Shown here one piece after another: positions 1-8,409 of a DNA stretch of 36,043 bases. The DNA comes from Nanobdellota archaeon (lineage in GTDB: Archaea; Nanobdellota; Nanobdellia; Woesearchaeales; DSVV01): contig JBNJGV010000006.1 of assembly GCA_051819785.1 (NCBI GenBank), positions 1 to 36,043 on the forward strand, given 5' to 3'. The first letter of the stretch is position 1, and each line of letters opens with the position of its first letter. The notes beneath the pieces are model-generated. The model was not told where the DNA came from and made no database searches. It worked only from the letters and a program-made list of their open reading frames with translations. The position numbers and the translations under genes are program-made.

Positions 1-30
1 TTTTTTGTTATTATGAAACAACAATAATTA

Positions 31-38
31 TTTAAATA
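31..38 (+). promoter_or_regulatory. Putative TATA box for a leaderless scpA transcript
   Basis: TTTAAATA ending 20 nt upstream of the ATG at 59. Confidence 0.55.
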
Positions 39-58
39 AGCTAATTAATGGTCTATCT

Positions 59-835
59 ATGGAAAACCAAACTAAACTTTTTGATATTATTTTCAATGAA
101 GATGAAGTTACTTGGCAATCTATGATTTATAAACTTGTAAGAGAAGAAGGAATGAATCCGTGGGATGTCAATATATCTGTTTTATCAAAAAGATTTCTTG
201 ATATGCTTCATAAATTAAAAAAAATGGATTTCAGAATTTCAGGAAAAGTAATTCTCGCTGCAGCGATGCTTCTTAGAATTAAATCTAGACGACTTGTTGG
301 TGAGGATTTTGATAATCTTGATAGGCTTATTGCTATGAGTGATGAAGCTGATGATGATTATGACAGTTTTGATGAAATTGAGGGTGGATTTATAGAAGAT
401 GTTGAAGAGATGGAAAAATCTGAGGAATTTTCAAAGAAAGGGGATGGGTACAAATTAAATACAAAAACACCTCTTCCCAGAAAAAGAAAAGTTTCAGTTT
501 ATGATTTGGTTGATGCTCTTCATAAAGCGCTTGAAGTTAAAAAAAGGCGAACAAACAGACTATCAAATGACTTAGAGGTTGACGTGAAGGTTCCTGAGAA
601 ACAAAGAGACATCACTAAAGTTATTCAGGAAGTTTATGAGAACATAGTAAAATATTTAGGTGAAAAAGGCGTAAAAAAACTTAATTTTTCAACAATTGTT
701 CCTGAAGGGAGCTCAAAAGAGGAGAAAGTGAGTACTTTTATGCCCTTACTATATCTTGATAATCAAAGGAAAATAGAAATGTATCAAGAGAGGCATTTGT
801 CAGATATTCATATAACTCTCAACCATACTACATAA
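59..835 (+). CDS. scpA: Segregation/condensation protein A (kleisin ScpA)
   Basis: N-terminal MNPWDVNI...SGKVILAAAMLLRIKS kleisin motif, RKRKVSVYDLVDAL, and C-terminal winged helix TFMPLLYLDNQRKIEMYQE; smc is in the same window. Confidence 0.93.
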   Translation: MENQTKLFDIIFNEDEVTWQSMIYKLVREEGMNPWDVNISVLSKRFLDMLHKLKKMDFRISGKVILAAAMLLRIKSRRLVGEDFDNLDRLIAMSDEADDDYDSFDEIEGGFIEDVEEMEKSEEFSKKGDGYKLNTKTPLPRKRKVSVYDLVDALHKALEVKKRRTNRLSNDLEVDVKVPEKQRDITKVIQEVYENIVKYLGEKGVKKLNFSTIVPEGSSKEEKVSTFMPLLYLDNQRKIEMYQERHLSDIHITLNHTT

Positions 836-852
836 AAAAATAGTGAATTCAA

Positions 853-2079
853 ATGAAAGAATTAGTAGCCATTTTTATAGCACTTTCTGCTCTTATTATT
901 GGTTCAATTACCGACCTTAAAAAAAGAGAGGTTCCAGATTGGCTGAATTATGGTTTGATGTTTGTTGGTTTCGCTCTTGCATTAATTGCAGGGATTATAG
1001 ATAATGATTTTGCTTATTTTCTTGAAAGCGCTGTTGGATTTATTTTCTTTTTTTTATTGGGTTCTTTGTTGTTTTATACAGGGCAATGGGGAGGCGGTGA
1101 CACTAAGATGCTAATGGGTTTAGGCGCTCTTGTTGGTATTGAGCTGTCTTTTAAAATTCCTCAGAATATTCAAGATGCCCCTTTTATGATTATTTTTGTA
1201 GGTCTGACCTTGGTTTCGGGAGCATTTTATGGTACTCTTTGGACGATATTTATGGCGTTTAAAAACCGCCGTTTATTTATCGAAGAATTCAAAAAAAGAT
1301 TATCGGCCAAGTGGATTATTTTTTTAAAATACCTGTGTCTTTTGTTAGTATTTATAGTAGCAATTGTTTTTTGGACAATTGATGATTTACTCTTAAAAAT
1401 GAGTTTTTTACTTATTGGTGTCTCTATACCTTTACTGTTTTATTTATCTATAGCTATAAAATCTATTGAAAAGGTTTGTATGATTAAAAAAGTTAGTCCT
1501 TCAAGCCTTACTGAAGGTGATTGGATTGAAGAAGAAATAATGGGAGATAAAACAAAAGTGTTTGGTAAAAAGGTTCTTTCTGAAAGTGATATTAAAAAGA
1601 TAAAAAAAATAAAATCTAAGTATTATGTGGATGTTAAACGTAAATTTTTAATTATAAGGCTTAAAAAAAGAGTTCATATTAGATTATTGAAAACCGGTGA
1701 TATCTTATTAGAAAAAATTGATAGTCCATTAAAACTAAATTCTGGGTTGTTGAAAAAAAGCGATATTGACAGGGTTAAAAATATTGGATTATATACTTTC
1801 AATACCCCAAAAATTCGGAAGAGTTTTATGTTTATGACTTATAAAACTGAATTTGATGAAGATTCTGTTAAAGCAGGAGACGAATTACTTAATGACCTTT
1901 ATTTTGGTGAATACATTTCAGGACCAAAAGATCTTGGAATAAGCAAACAAAACATTGCTAGGCTCGTAAAGTACCAAAAAGAAAATAAAATAAAACAAGT
2001 AACAATAAAGGAAGGTATTCCCTTTGTTCCCAGTTTTCTTATTGCTTTTATTGCGACTATTTTTTTGTTCTATTTATAG
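853..2079 (+). CDS. A24 family prepilin/preflagellin peptidase (PibD/FlaK-like) with an expanded cytoplasmic insert
   Basis: First catalytic Asp in ITDLKKREVPD, GxGD motif WGGGDTKML, multiple TM helices, C-terminal GIPFVPSFLIAF helix. Confidence 0.88.
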   Translation: MKELVAIFIALSALIIGSITDLKKREVPDWLNYGLMFVGFALALIAGIIDNDFAYFLESAVGFIFFFLLGSLLFYTGQWGGGDTKMLMGLGALVGIELSFKIPQNIQDAPFMIIFVGLTLVSGAFYGTLWTIFMAFKNRRLFIEEFKKRLSAKWIIFLKYLCLLLVFIVAIVFWTIDDLLLKMSFLLIGVSIPLLFYLSIAIKSIEKVCMIKKVSPSSLTEGDWIEEEIMGDKTKVFGKKVLSESDIKKIKKIKSKYYVDVKRKFLIIRLKKRVHIRLLKTGDILLEKIDSPLKLNSGLLKKSDIDRVKNIGLYTFNTPKIRKSFMFMTYKTEFDEDSVKAGDELLNDLYFGEYISGPKDLGISKQNIARLVKYQKENKIKQVTIKEGIPFVPSFLIAFIATIFLFYL

Positions 2080-2083
2080 ACAC

Positions 2084-2518
2084 TCATCTACTAAATTTAC
2101 CCATTAAAGTAGCTTGTTCGATTATATGCTTTTCCATAGCTCTTTTCAAATCTTCTTTAGTGGTTTCAGACACTAGATTGAGTTCAGTGTCTAATGCATA
2201 GAGCTTGAAGAAATACCTATGCTCACCTGATGGTGGACAGGGGCCTCCATAATGATTTCTTCCAAAGTTATTTATACCTTCTTTTCCGGGTATTGAATCT
2301 TCTTTGATTTCATCAGTTGGTTCAATATCCCATACAACCCAATGGACGAATGTCCCCATTGGCGCGTCAGGGTCGTCCATTATTAATGCAAGGGTTTTAG
2401 TATTTTCAGGTATGTCCTTTATATTGAGTGGCGGATTAATATCTTCACCCTCGCATGAATATTTTTCAGGTATTACTCCTCCGTCTTCAAAAACAGCACT
2501 TGTTAGTTTAAGAGCCAT
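2084..2518 (-). CDS. YbhB/YbcL family PEBP (Raf kinase inhibitor-like) protein
   Basis: LIMDDPDAP, FVHWVVWDI, YGGPCPPSGEHRYFFKLYALD motifs. Confidence 0.95.
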   Translation of the reverse strand: MALKLTSAVFEDGGVIPEKYSCEGEDINPPLNIKDIPENTKTLALIMDDPDAPMGTFVHWVVWDIEPTDEIKEDSIPGKEGINNFGRNHYGGPCPPSGEHRYFFKLYALDTELNLVSETTKEDLKRAMEKHIIEQATLMGKFSR

Positions 2519-2761
2519 ATAATCACCCCCATTTTTAGAAGAGTAATATAAACTTAAATATAAAATTTCTTATCAAAGACCTTTTAAATTTTTATTTTAA
2601 TAGTATTATATCAATTTTGGCGGATTAATTTATAAGTAATTATTTTGTCTTATATTTGTCTTGAAAATTTTTTTAGCATTTATTTATTCTTTTATTCATC
2701 CGTTTATTTTTTTTGAAGTTCACCATTAATCTTATAAATGGTAGCTTTTTGCAGTAATTTT

Positions 2762-4888
2762 ATGAAACCTGAGTTTAATTCGGATGGAAGTCTTAAAGTG
2801 CCAGACAAACTAAAAAGAAAAATTTCTCCTGAAGAAAAAGTCATCAGGGTGTTAAATGAACTTGATTATCCCTTCGGTAAAAGATTAATAGCTGAAGTAC
2901 TTAAGGGTGAGTTGACTCCTAGAATAAAGAAATTGAAGCTTAATCAGCTTTTAAGTTTTGGTGCGCTTGAGTTATATGATTTTCCTGATATCTATGAGTT
3001 GCTTGATAATATGGTTTTCCAGGGCATTCTTAAAGTTGAAAAATCTCATAAAACAGGATTCTTACCAGTTGTTATGATTAATAATGGGCTTTTCAAAGGG
3101 GATAATGAGGGTAAGGGAGTAACTTGTCAAAATTCTTTTGATGAGGTTACTGAAGATGACAAAAACAAGTTCATGGCTTTAGATTCCTTTTTAAACGGGT
3201 ATAATGATGAACAAAAAAAAAGTATAATAGAAGATCATAATAAGATTTTATGTATTGCGGGTGCAGGAAGCGGAAAAACAACTGTTCTTACAAAGAGGAT
3301 AGAATTCCTTGTTAAATATAAATCTGTTTCCAGCAGAGAAATTCTTGCAGTAACTTTTACAAGGAAAGCTAGACAAGAGATGATGAGTAGGCTTTCATAT
3401 ATGCTTCCCGGACACAATGTGTCAATAGAAACTTTCAATTCTCTATGTGAAAAGATTCTTCAAAAGAATGAATCATTAATATATGACAAAAAATACAGGG
3501 TTATGAGTTTCAAAGATAAGGTTGAAGTTTTCAATACTGCTTTGAGCAATCAAGGGTTTAGTGTTAGAGAAGCTATAGATAAGTATTACTCAAGAAAAAA
3601 ACAGAGAACTACCGACCAAAAACAATTGTTTTTTGGTCTTATTAATGATGTGTTCTCGATAATTGAAAATTGTAAAAATAACGACCAGAGTGTTCCAGAA
3701 ATCAGGCAAGCAATAAATAATATGGGCAATGTTTCTGAGAAAAATACTGGTCTTTTTATTTACTCTTTGATTAGGGAAATTGAAAAGCTTAAGACTGAAT
3801 ATGGTTTAAGGGATTATACTGATCAGTTGCGGGATGGTGTTAAGCTAATTGAACAAAAGCAAGATTTACTAAGGTTTTCTAATGTTCTAATAGACGAGTT
3901 TCAAGATGTAAATGAGATCCAGATAAAATTATTAAAAAAGATGTCTCCTGAAAATATTTTTGCTGTTGGTGACCCGAGACAGAGTATATATGGTTGGAGG
4001 GGTTCAAAAGTTGAATATATTATGAATTTTTCAGGGTTATATCCTGATTCTAAGATTATCCAGTTATCGAACAACTATAGATCGTGCCCCTGTATAGTTG
4101 ATGCTGGAAATGCTTTAATAAAAAGAATGAATCTTCCCCCTTTAACAGGTGTCAAAGACAGGGAGAACAAAATAACATTAATACAGCAAGAAAACCAGGA
4201 TGCAGAAGCAATGTTTATTGCCCAAAGTATACTTTCCATGGATGTTAAAAGGAAGAATATTTTTGTTCTTGTAAGGACAAATAAGCAAGCTGATAAAATT
4301 TCAGAAGTATTCACTTCACATAATATATCCTTTCTTAAAAGGACTGTTGAAGAACAAAAACAGAAATTACAGCCTGCTGAAAACGAAGTAACTATATCAA
4401 CAGTTCATGCAATAAAGGGGCTTGAGGCAGAGGTAGTTTATCTTGCAGGAGTAAATTCAAACAATTTTCCATGCCTTGTCTCAGATAATCCTGTTGTTGA
4501 TCAGATGAAACTGAATCTTCATTATGATAAATATAATGAAGAATTAAGGCTTTTATATGTTGCAATGACAAGGGCCAAGAAAAGGTTGGTTATTAGTTAT
4601 TATAATAAGCTAAGCCCCTTTATTACAAATGAGGTTTCTGAGATTATGTCTTTTTCAAAAAATGGTTCGTTACAGGTCAATCCTGAGGAAAAATTAAGAC
4701 AATGGAGGATTGAAAAGGCGAGAGAGCTCGGGATGCTGCCTTATATGTTGTTTAGTGATAAGACAATGTATCAACTTTTGTCAATGAGACCAAGAAATTG
4801 TGATGAGCTTAATCTAATAAATGGGATTGGTGAAGCTAAGATAAACCGCTTTGGTGATGAACTTCTTGATATGCTTTCTACATTGTAA
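2762..4888 (+). CDS. UvrD/PcrA-family SF1A helicase fused to an N-terminal RQC-like winged helix and a C-terminal HRDC domain
   Basis: Motifs AGAGSGKT, VTFTRKA, DEFQD, GDPRQSIYGWRG, NYRS, TVHAIKGLE, EELRLLYVAMTRAK; HRDC-like LRQWRIEKARELGMLPYMLFSDKT...GIGEAK. Start moved from 2738 to ATG 2762 because 2738 overlaps a TATA-like CTTATAAA (2731-2738). Confidence 0.9.
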   Translation: MKPEFNSDGSLKVPDKLKRKISPEEKVIRVLNELDYPFGKRLIAEVLKGELTPRIKKLKLNQLLSFGALELYDFPDIYELLDNMVFQGILKVEKSHKTGFLPVVMINNGLFKGDNEGKGVTCQNSFDEVTEDDKNKFMALDSFLNGYNDEQKKSIIEDHNKILCIAGAGSGKTTVLTKRIEFLVKYKSVSSREILAVTFTRKARQEMMSRLSYMLPGHNVSIETFNSLCEKILQKNESLIYDKKYRVMSFKDKVEVFNTALSNQGFSVREAIDKYYSRKKQRTTDQKQLFFGLINDVFSIIENCKNNDQSVPEIRQAINNMGNVSEKNTGLFIYSLIREIEKLKTEYGLRDYTDQLRDGVKLIEQKQDLLRFSNVLIDEFQDVNEIQIKLLKKMSPENIFAVGDPRQSIYGWRGSKVEYIMNFSGLYPDSKIIQLSNNYRSCPCIVDAGNALIKRMNLPPLTGVKDRENKITLIQQENQDAEAMFIAQSILSMDVKRKNIFVLVRTNKQADKISEVFTSHNISFLKRTVEEQKQKLQPAENEVTISTVHAIKGLEAEVVYLAGVNSNNFPCLVSDNPVVDQMKLNLHYDKYNEELRLLYVAMTRAKKRLVISYYNKLSPFITNEVSEIMSFSKNGSLQVNPEEKLRQWRIEKARELGMLPYMLFSDKTMYQLLSMRPRNCDELNLINGIGEAKINRFGDELLDMLSTL

Positions 4889-4948: not shown

Positions 4949-5473
4949 ATGGTAAGATATGCTGAAAATTCGCTGGAGAGAGTAGTTAATAAACTAGTTT
5001 TTATATCAATTTTCTTTATACTTGTTATGGTTATTATGGATATATTGTCTTTTTTTTTAAATTCATTCCAGAATCCATTAAGTCAGGTCTCCGTAATATT
5101 GGGCTTTATGATTAATCTTATTTTTTTGGTAGATTTATTGCTTATTTTTAGAAAAGAGCTAACTATTGCTTCATTTTTTAAAAATAATTGGCTTGATATA
5201 ATTGCTGTACTCCCTTTTGATATGTTCAGGTTGGCAAAAATTGCGAGGCTTTCAAAACTTGCGAGATTCACACGCCTAACAAAAGAGACGAGGCTTTTTA
5301 GGTTTATACCAAGAATATTTTATTTAAGGGGAGCAAAAGCATTTTCAAAAGAGACAGATTTGAACAGGCAACTTGAACGGACTAGAGATAGAATCTTTGA
5401 GCTTAAATTAAAAAGAAAAGATTCAGAAATGGAAAAACTTTACCATAAGATTAAAAAGATAACTGGGGTTTAG
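4949..5473 (+). CDS. Stand-alone voltage-sensor-like (Ion_trans S1-S4) membrane protein with no pore domain
   Basis: S2-like NLIFLVDLLLIF, S3-like KNNWLDIIAVLPF, S4-like R/K at every third residue (FRLAKIARLSKLARFTRLTKETRLFR); no S5-P-S6 or GYG filter; charged helical tail. Confidence 0.75.
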   Translation: MVRYAENSLERVVNKLVFISIFFILVMVIMDILSFFLNSFQNPLSQVSVILGFMINLIFLVDLLLIFRKELTIASFFKNNWLDIIAVLPFDMFRLAKIARLSKLARFTRLTKETRLFRFIPRIFYLRGAKAFSKETDLNRQLERTRDRIFELKLKRKDSEMEKLYHKIKKITGV

Positions 5474-5480
5474 ATTTAAA

Positions 5481-6617
5481 ATGGCTAAAAATGAGATAAC
5501 AACAGGTGTTGATAAGCTTATAAAACTTATAGATGAAGCAGGAGGTAGAATTGCTCTTAAAGATGCAATGAAAAGGCTTAATGTTTCTAAAGAACTTATA
5601 GAAGAATGGGCAAGTACTTTAGAGGAGAATAAAACAATAAGTATTGAAGACAAGCTTTTCAGGACGTACCTTGTAAAAGGGGTTAGCCAAAAAGAGCTTA
5701 AGAAAAAGGCAAAGGAATTGACATTAAAAGAAGAGGCCTTTAAGCAAAATGCGCTTGTGGCTCTTAAGGATTTCAAGGGAGAGGCAAAAGGTCTTGAGGA
5801 ATTGGAAAAAGAATTTGAGTCCCTTTCTAAAACTTTGAAAGATAAAAGTAAATCAATAAATGACCAGTTAAAGAATTTATATGAATTTGATAAATTGAAC
5901 AAAACTTTTGAACAGGAATTAAATGAAGTTGATAAAAGAACTAATGATTATGTAAAAAAAATTGAGGATGCAGTTGAATCAAAGAAGAAAGAATATCAGG
6001 ATCTATTATCAAAAGTTGATAAGGAAAAACAAGTTATTGATAAAAAAAATAAGGAACTTCAAAAATTTCTTGAGAATGCTAATCGGCTTAATAAAGAGAT
6101 TTCGGAATCCAAACGAAAGATTAGTGAATTGCAGGAATCTGCAAAGAATGTAAAGCCTCAAATTGAGCTTCTTAAGGAATCAAATGTCAAGGATTTTGTT
6201 TCTAAACAAAAAGAATTTGTTCAGAGGATATCAAAAAAACAATCCAAATTCTTGAAAGAGATTATGCTTAAGAGGAAGTTTATGAAAATTGGCTTTGAAG
6301 AAAGCCAGATGATTAAAGAAAGAATTGATTATTTTTTCAATAAACACCAAAAAATTGAAAAAAAATACGAAAAGTTGCGAAATGAGCGAAGCGAGATCCT
6401 AAAAGAACTAGGAGAAATACTCAAACTTGCTGAGCAATATAGGGTTTTGGCTAAGAAAAAGGATGTTTCAAGAGAATTTGAACAAGTTGAAAAAAGATTT
6501 TCTCAAATTAAGAAAAGGAAAGAAAATTTTAACCAAGAACTTGAAGAATTGCGCAAGACTGTCAAAGGCAAAAACGCAGGAAAATCAAAATCTATAAGGA
6601 GAAGAAAACAAAAATAA
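5481..6617 (+). CDS. Hypothetical protein: N-terminal winged-helix-like domain plus long coiled coil
   Basis: TGVDKLIKLI...IALKDAMKRLNVSKELIEEWASTLEE resembles a wHTH; the rest is K/E-rich with heptad periodicity. Confidence 0.7.
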   Translation: MAKNEITTGVDKLIKLIDEAGGRIALKDAMKRLNVSKELIEEWASTLEENKTISIEDKLFRTYLVKGVSQKELKKKAKELTLKEEAFKQNALVALKDFKGEAKGLEELEKEFESLSKTLKDKSKSINDQLKNLYEFDKLNKTFEQELNEVDKRTNDYVKKIEDAVESKKKEYQDLLSKVDKEKQVIDKKNKELQKFLENANRLNKEISESKRKISELQESAKNVKPQIELLKESNVKDFVSKQKEFVQRISKKQSKFLKEIMLKRKFMKIGFEESQMIKERIDYFFNKHQKIEKKYEKLRNERSEILKELGEILKLAEQYRVLAKKKDVSREFEQVEKRFSQIKKRKENFNQELEELRKTVKGKNAGKSKSIRRRKQK

Positions 6618-6646: not shown

Positions 6647-7297
6647 ATGGATGCAAAAGATGTAATTTTAGTTGTGTGTGCGCATAATGATGATCATATA
6701 CTCGGAGTTGGTGGGACCCTGGCCAAATATGCTAAACAGGGATATAAGGTAGTAGTAATTATTTTATCTTATGGTGAGACCTCACATGTGTGGCTTAAGC
6801 AAAAGGAAATAATTAAAACAAGGGTTAAAGAATCACGGAATGCCGATAAAATATTGGGGCTTCATAAAACTTATTATTATGGTCTAAAAGAAGGAAGCTT
6901 TTTGAATGAGTTTGAGAATAAAGGAATTCAAAAGAAGCTCTTGAGAACTATTTCTGTTTTGAAGCCTGTTAAAATATTTACTCATTCATTTGACGATTTA
7001 CATCCAGATCATAGGGCAACTTACAGCAAATTGATGGAAACTGTTGAGAAGTCAGGAATTGGTTGTGATGTATATTCTTTTGATATATGGAATCCTTTTA
7101 ATATTAGGAAAAGAGATAGTCCTAAGATGGTGGTTGATATAACCAAAACTTTTAAGTTAAAAGTTAAATCTTTCGCTCTTCATAAGAGCCAGTGGCAGGC
7201 AAAATTGATTATGACACCTGCTATGTATGCCAGGGGTATATTAAATGGATTAGAGCATGGTATAAAGTTTGCTGAGGTTTTTTATAAGTTAAAATGA
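6647..7297 (+). CDS. PIG-L/LmbE family metal-dependent GlcNAc de-N-acetylase
   Basis: AHNDDH (variant of AHPDDE), LSYGE, DLHPDH, K...HKSQ motifs. Confidence 0.9.
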   Translation: MDAKDVILVVCAHNDDHILGVGGTLAKYAKQGYKVVVIILSYGETSHVWLKQKEIIKTRVKESRNADKILGLHKTYYYGLKEGSFLNEFENKGIQKKLLRTISVLKPVKIFTHSFDDLHPDHRATYSKLMETVEKSGIGCDVYSFDIWNPFNIRKRDSPKMVVDITKTFKLKVKSFALHKSQWQAKLIMTPAMYARGILNGLEHGIKFAEVFYKLK

Positions 7298-8409
7298 AAA
7301 AGCTGCTAATTGCAACGGATGGTTTTTTGCCAAGATGGGATGGGATTGTCAGGTTTCTTATAGAATTAGTCCCTCGTTTAGAAAAAGATTATCAAATAAA
7401 GATTGTTGCCCCTAAGTTTCCAGGTCACTTTATAAATCCATTTAATTCAGAAGTTATAAGGTTTGATCTTATGAACCGAAATTTTGGTGATATACAATTT
7501 TCTAAGGTGAAAGCTAAATCACTAGAGCCTTATATAGAATGGTCTGATTTGGTATTTGTTCAAAGTTTAGGCACGTTGGGAATGAAGACTATAAAGCTTG
7601 CTAAAAAATCAGGTAAGCCAACGATTTCTTTTCTTCATTTGATTGAGTGGGAACTTGCAACAAAGAGTATAAAACATTTTAAACGAATTGCTAGGTACTT
7701 AAGTTTTATAATTTCTAAAAAATATTATAAAATGTGTGATATGCTTATTTGTCCGTCAGAAGAGATGTCTCTTATTTACGAAAAAAATGGCATAAAAACA
7801 CCAAAAAAAGTTGCAACCTTGGGTACTGATATTTATTATTTTAAGCCAATGGATAAAACAAAAGCTAAAGAACGGATAGGAATAGGTGAGGAGACTAAAA
7901 TAATAGGATATCATGGAAGGATAGGAAGAGAAAAAGATCTTGTGACTCTTTATAGGGCATTTAGAAGGGTTGAAAGAAAATATTCTGGTGTTAAACTTAT
8001 GATTGTAGGTAAAGGAGTAAAGGAAATGGAAACTATTTTCTCTTCTGATAAAAATATAATTTTTCCTGGTTCACAAGATGATGTTGCTTCGTATTTACAG
8101 GCAATGGATATTTATGTAACGCCTTCTTTGACTGAAACCACTTCTTTATCCACTCTTGAAGCAATGTCGTGTGGTCTTCCTGTGATTTCAACACCTGCTG
8201 GTTCGGTTAAGGAGTATATCAGTGAAAGGGAGAATGGTATGCTTTTCCCTTTCAGAAATTCGGTTAGGTTATCTATGAAGATAGAGCTTCTTCTTAATAA
8301 TAAGGAGTTGCGCGAAAAACTTGGAAAGAATGCTCGCCAAACAGTGAAAGAAAACTTTAATTGGGAAAAAACTTACAAAGATATAAAGGAAGTATTGGGA
8401 AGGTTTTAG
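7294..8409 (+). CDS. GT4 family glycosyltransferase
   Basis: TDGFLPRWDGIV N-terminus, HGRIGREKD, PSLTETTSLSTLEAMSCGLPVI (EX7E); overlaps the upstream PIG-L gene by 4 nt. Confidence 0.92.
   Translation: MKKLLIATDGFLPRWDGIVRFLIELVPRLEKDYQIKIVAPKFPGHFINPFNSEVIRFDLMNRNFGDIQFSKVKAKSLEPYIEWSDLVFVQSLGTLGMKTIKLAKKSGKPTISFLHLIEWELATKSIKHFKRIARYLSFIISKKYYKMCDMLICPSEEMSLIYEKNGIKTPKKVATLGTDIYYFKPMDKTKAKERIGIGEETKIIGYHGRIGREKDLVTLYRAFRRVERKYSGVKLMIVGKGVKEMETIFSSDKNIIFPGSQDDVASYLQAMDIYVTPSLTETTSLSTLEAMSCGLPVISTPAGSVKEYISERENGMLFPFRNSVRLSMKIELLLNNKELREKLGKNARQTVKENFNWEKTYKDIKEVLGRF

Follow-up and report, generated by a model that had tools for sequence, protein, structure and literature searches.

A pore-less, stand-alone Kv-type voltage-sensor domain in a Woesearchaeales archaeon, with a neighbouring coiled-coil gene as candidate partner

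The sensor gene and its product

The window analysed here is the whole 36,043-nt stretch of DNA at positions 1-36,043 of contig JBNJGV010000006.1 (assembly GCA_051819785.1), which comes from a Nanobdellota archaeon (Woesearchaeales; DSVV01), and our subject is one of its genes, which encodes a protein of 174 residues, hereafter the sensor. The protein is a genuine stand-alone S1-S4 voltage-sensor domain (VSD) of the Kv type without a pore of its own (Table 1). A first-pass annotation of the sequence had described a 174-residue protein with an F..D pair in S2, an S3 reading NWLDIIAVLP, an aspartate near the end of S1, a charged tail and no pore, and all of these are present: the S3 motif occupies residues 80-89, the S1 aspartate is D31 within VMVIMDIL, and the C-terminus is a charged helical tail. 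No pore helix or filter is found in the sequence, whose stop codon follows 56 residues after R118. A Pfam scan of the sensor gave no match to Ion_trans_2 and none to a phosphatase, exchanger or cyclic-nucleotide domain, and NCBIfam gave no match for it.

Table 1. Positions in the window of the sensor gene, its structural parts and the genes that follow it (pLDDT, predicted local distance difference test).
Feature	Position	Strand	Basis
174-aa pore-less voltage-sensor gene (class A)	4949..5473	+	Open reading frame with ATG start; Ion_trans match over S1-S4; family profile reaches the KvAP VSD
S1 helix, residues 8-36, with outer acid D31	4970..5056	+	AlphaFold2 helix, pLDDT ~90
S2 helix, residues 44-69; F59 and D62 belong to the charge-transfer centre	5078..5155	+	AlphaFold2 helix; family conservation
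S3, residues 73-87, kinked, with N80-W81-L82-D83, then P89	5165..5209	+	AlphaFold2 helices 73-79 and 81-87
S4 helix, residues 90-110, with basic i+3 run onward to R118	5216..5302	+	AlphaFold2 helix 90-110 or 94-110
Post-S4 amphipathic helix, residues 120-133, motif G-A-K-x-F-S-x-E-T	5306..5347	+	Class-A invariants; alignment to S4-S5 linker
C-terminal cytoplasmic helix, residues 135-172, class A only	5351..5464	+	Single AlphaFold2 helix, pLDDT 93-97
378-aa winged-helix-like and coiled-coil gene, candidate partner	5481..6617	+	8 nt downstream; adjacency in 3/3 genomes
PIG-L-family deacetylase and GT4 glycosyltransferase genes	6647..8409	+	Pfam matches; order kept in L003 and L043

The S4 segment reads R-LA-K-IA-R-LS-K-LA-R-FT-R, and basic residues stand at strict i+3 spacing at positions 94, 97, 100, 103, 106, 109, 112, 115 and 118. 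A nine-long run of this kind did not occur once in 200,000 composition-preserving shuffles of the protein, in which the maximum was 8. The extra-long S4 proposed earlier needs a correction: residue 110 is the last of the S4 helix in both AlphaFold models, and this helix includes only six of the nine charges (94-109). The remaining three fall in a segment of low confidence (block pLDDT 52-63) just ahead of the post-S4 helix.

Beyond S4, the residues K130, F132, S133, E135 and T136 are invariant in class A, the class to which the sensor belongs, as are T145, K153, L154 and E160 of the C-terminal helix. The first-pass annotation had likened this tail to the C-terminal coiled coil of Hv1. A long helix is predicted here with confidence, over residues 135-172, but its heptads are weak, with hydrophobic residues at 6 of 11 a/d positions in the best register. 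Comparison with the closest orthologue gave proportions of non-synonymous (pN) and synonymous (pS) differences of 0.27 and 0.71, respectively, and a dN/dS of ~0.14 at a dS near saturation. The sensor gene is therefore maintained by purifying selection.

Relationship to Kv-type voltage sensors

An exhaustive phmmer search of 1.84 billion cluster representatives with the 174-aa sensor returned 123 relatives at E<=1e-3, and the family set used for all conservation and architecture counts comprises 127 sequences. The Pfam profile Ion_trans (PF00520) aligns with residues 22-122 of the sensor over profile positions 6-111 of 241, which is its S1-S4 half. The sensor query reaches pore-less relatives at E ~1e-10, and some of these lie above the Pfam cut-off on the S1-S4 half alone (e.g. 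P0010 with 37 bits and P0024 with 36.4 bits); Ion_trans matches at E<=1e-3 are found in 71 of the 127 sequences. A profile built from the whole family set hits the KvAP sensor at E=8.3e-11. As a control we used a profile of the 119 sequences left after removal of all those with a pore motif or an Ion_trans_2 match, and it still reaches KvAP (1.8e-9), NavRh (1.2e-7) and NaChBac (4.9e-6) over the S1-S4 span only, as well as Shaker, Kv1.2, Cav3 and hERG, again over S1-S4 only. With the single sensor sequence, phmmer against the PDB sequences gave one chance match only, to VMA21 (E=0.076).

Conservation follows the pattern of a working sensor. Of the charge-transfer centre, F59 is kept in 123 of the 127 sequences and an acid in 126 at position 62 and in 125 at position 83; W81 and P89 recur in 113 and 125, respectively, and 75 sequences have an acid at position 31. 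Basic residues occupy each of the first five S4 positions (94-106) in 96-117 sequences and position 130 in 99, and F132 is found in 69. The hidden Markov model alignment pairs D62 with the S2 Asp of KvAP, D83 with its S3 Glu and D31 with its S1 Glu. Judged from its sequence, the sensor has the residues that define a functional voltage sensor, namely the aromatic plug of S2, the acids of S2 and S3, and five or six S4 charge positions.

AlphaFold2 models were made for the full-length sensor with the family alignment and for residues 1-134 alone, the latter because the long C-terminal helix disturbs the structural alignment of the full model. The full-length model (pLDDT 83.8) shows six helices, with the limits given in Table 1, and the 1-134 model has a pLDDT of 77 and a predicted template modelling score (pTM) of 0.61. 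With the shorter model, the best 50 Foldseek matches listed were all channels that bear S1-S4, with a TM-score to the query of 0.60 for the Kv1.2-2.1 chimera (root-mean-square deviation (rmsd) 3.8 Å) and 0.57 for Kv1.2. The full model retrieved mostly sensor-bearing channels, at E ~1 and an rmsd of ~13 Å, together with a few unrelated proteins (Lon protease, glycine receptor). In a wide structural search with the full model, generic helical hairpins dominated at Z ~8 and Kv4.2 appeared at Z 7.7; a VIA re-alignment to the KvAP VSD gave a middling Z of 7.8. One further fold match, dVGAC (9m05), is a de novo designed protein and was set aside as irrelevant. The first-pass annotation had regarded failure to form a four-helix sensor bundle as decisive against a sensor; the trimmed model superposes on the S1-S4 region of Kv channels, albeit with weak Foldseek E-values. 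Overall, the sequence evidence for the identity of the sensor is strong, and the fold evidence is consistent with it but moderate.

The sensor falls within the VSDs of the voltage-gated channel superfamily, and its nearest solved relatives are KvAP, Shaker, Kv1.2, NavRh and NaChBac by profile, and KvAP and the Kv channels also by fold. With the VSDs of KvAP and Shaker/Kv1.2 the sensor shares four helices, an aromatic residue and an acid in S2, an acid in S3 and a basic residue at every third position of S4. In these channels the S5-P-S6 pore comes next, whereas the sensor continues with an amphipathic helix, which is conserved, and then a long helix in the cytoplasm.

A family almost wholly without pores

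Family members were scored as pore-bearing when they had an Ion_trans_2 match at E<=1e-3 or a full-length Ion_trans match. Six of the 127 sequences qualify, five of them through Ion_trans_2 and the sixth, P0102, through a full-length Ion_trans that is accompanied by RCK domains. In the other 121 the tail after the sensor match measures at most 67 residues (median 6) and is therefore too short for S5-P-S6. Most of these pore-less proteins (81) are short, with 67-212 residues and the sensor at the N-terminus; 36 have a front extension of more than 100 residues (242-363 aa in total), and 4 a shorter one. Because metagenomic gene calls can end at contig ends, we read complete open reading frames with their stops and flanking genes in the loci, and more than 20 loci hold complete pore-less frames inside contigs (L003, L004, L005, L006, L009-L028, L043 and L044). 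The basic i+3 runs are 6-12 long in the six pore-bearing relatives and reach 15 in pore-less members, so that a long run is a trait of the family and not a mark of pore-lessness. If the homologues were full six-transmembrane (6-TM) channels, as the first-pass annotation had considered, the gene could be a truncated pseudogene; the relatives are instead consistently pore-less (121/127), and by this comparison the sensor belongs to an almost wholly pore-less family and is not a truncated channel.

The nearest named records to the sensor come from metagenome-assembled genomes labelled Candidatus Nanoarchaeia and Candidatus Woesearchaeota. Class-A orthologues have 165-174 residues at 40-65% identity and keep all key residues. 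We surveyed 301 sampled genomes of the class, 204 of them of high quality, and the class-A profile matched (E<=1e-3) in 70 of all genomes and in 55 of the high-quality ones, the matches being heterogeneous. Among 61 relatives, class A proper, with its C-terminal helix, was found in three genomes only: that of the window, that of a congener and one from a different genus. A fourth genome (G308) encodes a sensor variant of 140 residues that lacks this helix. For the metagenome scan a wide alignment was dropped as too diverse, and a closer alignment led to three loci.

A second class, B, comprises proteins of ~270-300 residues. Classes A and B have in common the motif (G/S)-A-K-x-F-S-x-(E/S).. 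after S4, which lines up with the part of the 6-TM relatives that holds their S4-S5 linker. The window's genome has a class-B paralogue of 296 residues on contig 9 (L028:3100-3990 (-)), built from an N-terminal domain of four transmembrane helices (4-TM), the sensor, the segment 'KFFSGDSSFNKY' with the shared KFFS..S.FNKY motif, and a poly-Lys tail. The 4-TM domain belongs to no Pfam family and has no stand-alone copy in the window's genome, where the next match lies at E=0.1.

Two further groups of genes were seen beside the family. A large subfamily of 150-230 residues (L012, L014-L016 and L018-L027; e.g. L016:1384-1914 (-)) shares S1-S3 with the sensor, after which a long polar insertion and a proline-bearing basic 'RFxRPxxRxPRLxK' replace the regular S4. 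At L067, a gene for a 207-aa pore-less sensor-like protein (2818-3441 (-)) lies 40 nt upstream of a complete 6-TM Kv channel of 326 residues (1797-2777 (-)) with a TVGYGD filter and a C-terminal zinc ribbon, and it also adjoins an APC-methyltransferase permease that has no sensor.

The coiled-coil gene next to the sensor gene

The gene downstream of the sensor encodes a 378-aa protein with a winged-helix-like N-terminal domain followed by a long coiled coil. The protein has no curated family, with only sub-threshold SMC/Rad50-like coiled-coil matches in NCBIfam, and a profile search of the PDB returned generic coiled coils only; the nearest clusters in the Protein Atlas are unnamed hypothetical proteins (scores 0.89-0.91). 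The order sensor, coiled-coil protein, PIG-L and GT4 is kept in three genomes of two genera, with a gap of 2-8 nt between the first two genes (2 nt in L003; 6 nt in L043, which is from a different genus). Sensor identity among these three genomes falls to 36-56%, that of L043 being only 36-44%, and the genes upstream of the sensor differ there. The adjacency count covers these three genomes, and the class-A members P0002, P0003 and P0005-P0007 stand outside it. The 61 relatives contain close orthologues of the coiled-coil protein (72% and 55% identity) in only two genomes, in each case beside a full-length class-A sensor. The 140-aa variant of G308 has other neighbours, and its genome gave no coiled-coil match.

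Contigs from RNA libraries, from three runs of one salt-lake study, bridge the junction of the sensor and coiled-coil genes with zero mismatch (e.g. 5030-5711), and the two genes are probably co-transcribed. Parts of the locus have no cover by RNA-library contigs, and we draw nothing from this gap. A complex prediction for the sensor and the 378-aa protein gave a score of 0.00 and a mark of 0.32; it was run with no controls and counts neither way.

A distant family of the coiled-coil protein (27-33% identity, ~386 residues) occurs in 24 of the 61 relatives, including both genomes with close orthologues, and its genes lie directly beside those for a T2SSE (PilB/FlaI-type) ATPase, a T2SSF platform protein and pilins with class-III signals. 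By these sequence relationships, the 378-aa protein is a diverged paralogue of a component encoded beside type-IV-filament ATPases. The ~386-aa winged-helix and coiled-coil proteins, for which no curated name exists and which are seen for example at L057:8822-9979 (-) and L058:8944-10101 (+) beside the ATPase, platform genes, a giant VWA protein and pilins, are probably an undescribed component of DPANN type-IV-filament loci.

Some related arrangements were observed in the window's genome. On contig 28 (L066) the pilus-locus protein appears split into a winged-helix part of 145 residues (1111-1548 (-)) and a coiled-coil part of at least 369 residues (3-1109 (-)), which adjoins a pilin-like protein with a single transmembrane helix. 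On contig 15 (L061:3-659 (+)), a membrane protein with a TrkA/RCK-like nucleotide-binding motif is encoded directly upstream of a 574-aa pilus-type ATPase, in the position held by the coiled-coil protein in relatives. In the window itself, ~3 kb upstream of the sensor gene, the gene at 853-2079 (+) encodes 408 residues that include a type-IV prepilin peptidase domain (Peptidase_A24).

How the sensor may act

The sensor probably passes a signal of membrane voltage to a partner rather than conducting ions. Signalling through a partner, none being named, was also part of the first-pass annotation, and it remains the best reading, now with the product of the downstream gene as a candidate and with the function deduced rather than observed. 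We tentatively favour a Kv-type sensor without a pore whose S4 would move with the membrane potential, the movement reaching a partner by way of two helices, the conserved one after S4 and the cytoplasmic one peculiar to class A; for the role of partner, the cytoplasmic coiled-coil protein encoded 8 nt downstream is the best candidate. The two genes would then make up a module through which some machine in the cytoplasm, possibly one related to pili, is informed of the membrane voltage. A more far-reaching version of this proposal, which we consider doubtful, is that stand-alone voltage sensors are an old and independent signalling module of ultra-small archaea rather than pieces of channels, and that the two genes act as a switch coupling membrane potential to the type-IV-filament machine with which the cell attaches; such a switch might, for example, sense whether the cell is energised or in touch with a host.

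Several observations weigh against our preferred reading. The sensor alone scores 21 bits against Ion_trans, whose curated cut-off is 25; a profile of seven class-A sequences has NaChBac as its best match in the PDB, at a non-significant E of 0.087; and the Foldseek E-values never fall below 0.26. As to the partner, the bridging RNA contigs fall short of proving one transcript because RNA libraries can hold DNA, the order of the gene pair may be inherited rather than selected because the three genomes are kin, and the link of the coiled-coil protein to pili rests on the neighbourhood of paralogues that are only 27-33% identical. Finally, the sensors of Shaker, sNHE and CatSper3 have been found to conduct when isolated, with no mutation needed (PMC10651576, PMC13095418).

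The last point bears on the possibility that the sensor is itself an Hv-like or omega-type conductor whose gating pore would admit protons or small cations under the control of voltage, possibly in a dimeric form joined through the C-terminal helix. We regard this as unlikely, even if a self-sufficient function would be attractive for a protein of which most host genomes lack a K+ pore. The layout, a pore-less sensor followed by a cytoplasmic C-terminal helix, does resemble that of eukaryotic Hv1. The hallmarks of Hv1 are RxWRxxR, a Trp in S4 and an Asp deep in S1 (PMC8804609). The S4 of the archaeal sensor contains no Trp and no RxWRxxR, and the sole acid in the membrane span of its S1 is D31, which lies near the outer end, aligns with the S1 Glu of KvAP and corresponds to the outer S1 acid shared by Kv-type sensors. 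Because Hv1 hallmarks are missing, 'Hv1-like', as the sensor had been called, is apt for the layout and not for kinship. Neither Hv1 nor VSP is among the best 60 of 62 matches of the 127-sequence profile or the best 60 of 76 of the 119-sequence profile, and the Pfam scan finds no PTEN-like phosphatase domain in the 56 residues that follow the basic run. Neither bacteria nor archaea are known to have an Hv, according to a 2023 review (PMC10377628). In addition, the plug residue F59 and the unbroken basic series of S4 are kept, and in channels these features seal the gating pore (PMC10651576). The weak heptad pattern of the tail also counts against this reading. The vertebrate TMEM266/HVRP1 is a pore-less, non-conducting stand-alone sensor with a cytoplasmic tail and an unclear output, which the archaeal protein resembles in the stand-alone sensor and the tail and from which it differs in not being eukaryotic.

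Somewhat less probable again is a regulator that acts in trans on a transporter or other membrane protein encoded elsewhere, as the unfused equivalent of sensor-permease fusions found in the lineage. Such fusions, of 765-780 residues with a related sensor at the N-terminus followed by an APC-family amino-acid permease, occur in three Nanoarchaeia genomes (L029:2822-5152 (+), L030:1529-3871 (-) and L031:114-2411 (+); AA_permease_2 with E=1e-43 to 1e-47), and one of the three also has a C-terminal methyltransferase domain. Since the sensor is further joined to the unknown 4-TM domain in 36 of the 127 relatives, the class-B architecture, it is evidently used as a module on non-pore partners in this lineage, and the conserved helix resembling the S4-S5 linker would suit such a role. 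SLC9C1 provides the precedent of a sensor that can gate a transporter (PMC6052114, PMC10620091), and the archaeal sensor-APC permease fusions parallel it in placing a sensor on a non-pore effector; the class-A sensor differs in being a separate small protein. However, class A has no linked candidate gene for a membrane partner, a free-standing counterpart of the class-B 4-TM domain is missing from the window's genome, and what sets class A apart is a cytoplasmic helix and not a membrane surface.

A split Kv channel, assembled from the sensor and a separate K+ pore, appears improbable. The first-pass annotation had suggested looking for a pore-only K+ channel in the genome, and one is indeed encoded on contig 22 (L001:1240-1842 (-)), a 2-TM protein of 200 residues. 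Its filter reads TLGYGD, it has a cytoplasmic tail, and its Ion_trans match is confined to the pore half. Moreover, Eag and hERG cut between sensor and pore still gate (PMC13095418). The sensor and K+ channel genes lie on different contigs, however, and the presence of the pore is not associated with that of the sensor across genomes. When K+ pores were scored by PF07885 matches in the 301 genomes of the survey, 51 were positive, and their overlap with the 70 sensor-positive genomes was 14 against 11.9 expected (Fisher p=0.47); the other 56 sensor-positive genomes, some of them rated 99-100% complete, have no PF07885 match. The genome of the closest sensor orthologue, which is 68% complete, also gave no K+ pore match. 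Split Eag and hERG and the isolated Shaker sensor do show that a sensor on a separate polypeptide can fold and can gate in trans or leak (PMC13095418, PMC10651576), but they are laboratory constructs, whereas the archaeal sensors are a natural conserved family without a consistent pore partner.

That the gene is a decayed, functionless remnant of a 6-TM channel gene is extremely improbable: the sensor alone does lie below the Pfam cut-off, but no key residue has been lost from its orthologues of 165-174 residues (40-65% identity), pS greatly exceeds pN, nearly all of the family lacks a pore, and the gene is covered by contigs from RNA libraries. A frameshifted pore region downstream would have spoken for decay, but the gene that begins 8 nt after the stop is unrelated.

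Relation to known voltage sensors

A 2023 review describes each voltage sensor so far known from prokaryotes as accompanied by a K+, Na+ or Ca2+ pore and takes this as an argument for a eukaryotic origin of Hv1 and other pore-less sensors (PMC10377628). The portion of a 2024 voltage-sensor review accessible to us lists no prokaryotic pore-less sensor (PMC13095418), and in the full-text literature, with subscription journals and supplements outside the search, we found no description of one. The present proteins are a natural, conserved family of pore-less stand-alone sensors in archaea with a candidate two-gene output. The lineage that has this family also has sensor-permease fusions and canonical 6-TM channels, and it can now be tested whether the sensor was an independent module before it joined a pore and what a sensor can control besides a pore. 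Should the switch between voltage and type-IV filaments prove true, a natural voltage sensor of a prokaryote would for the first time have an output that is cytoplasmic and not a channel. With only 140-175 residues, these proteins are appealing subjects for structural and biophysical study, and they might serve as minimal scaffolds for reporting voltage.

Other genes in the window

In all three genomes the sensor and coiled-coil genes are followed by those for the PIG-L deacetylase and the GT4 glycosyltransferase, which overlap by 4 nt. Such a pair typically makes a glucosamine-containing glycoconjugate. The window also contains genes for ScpA, SMC and FtsZ.

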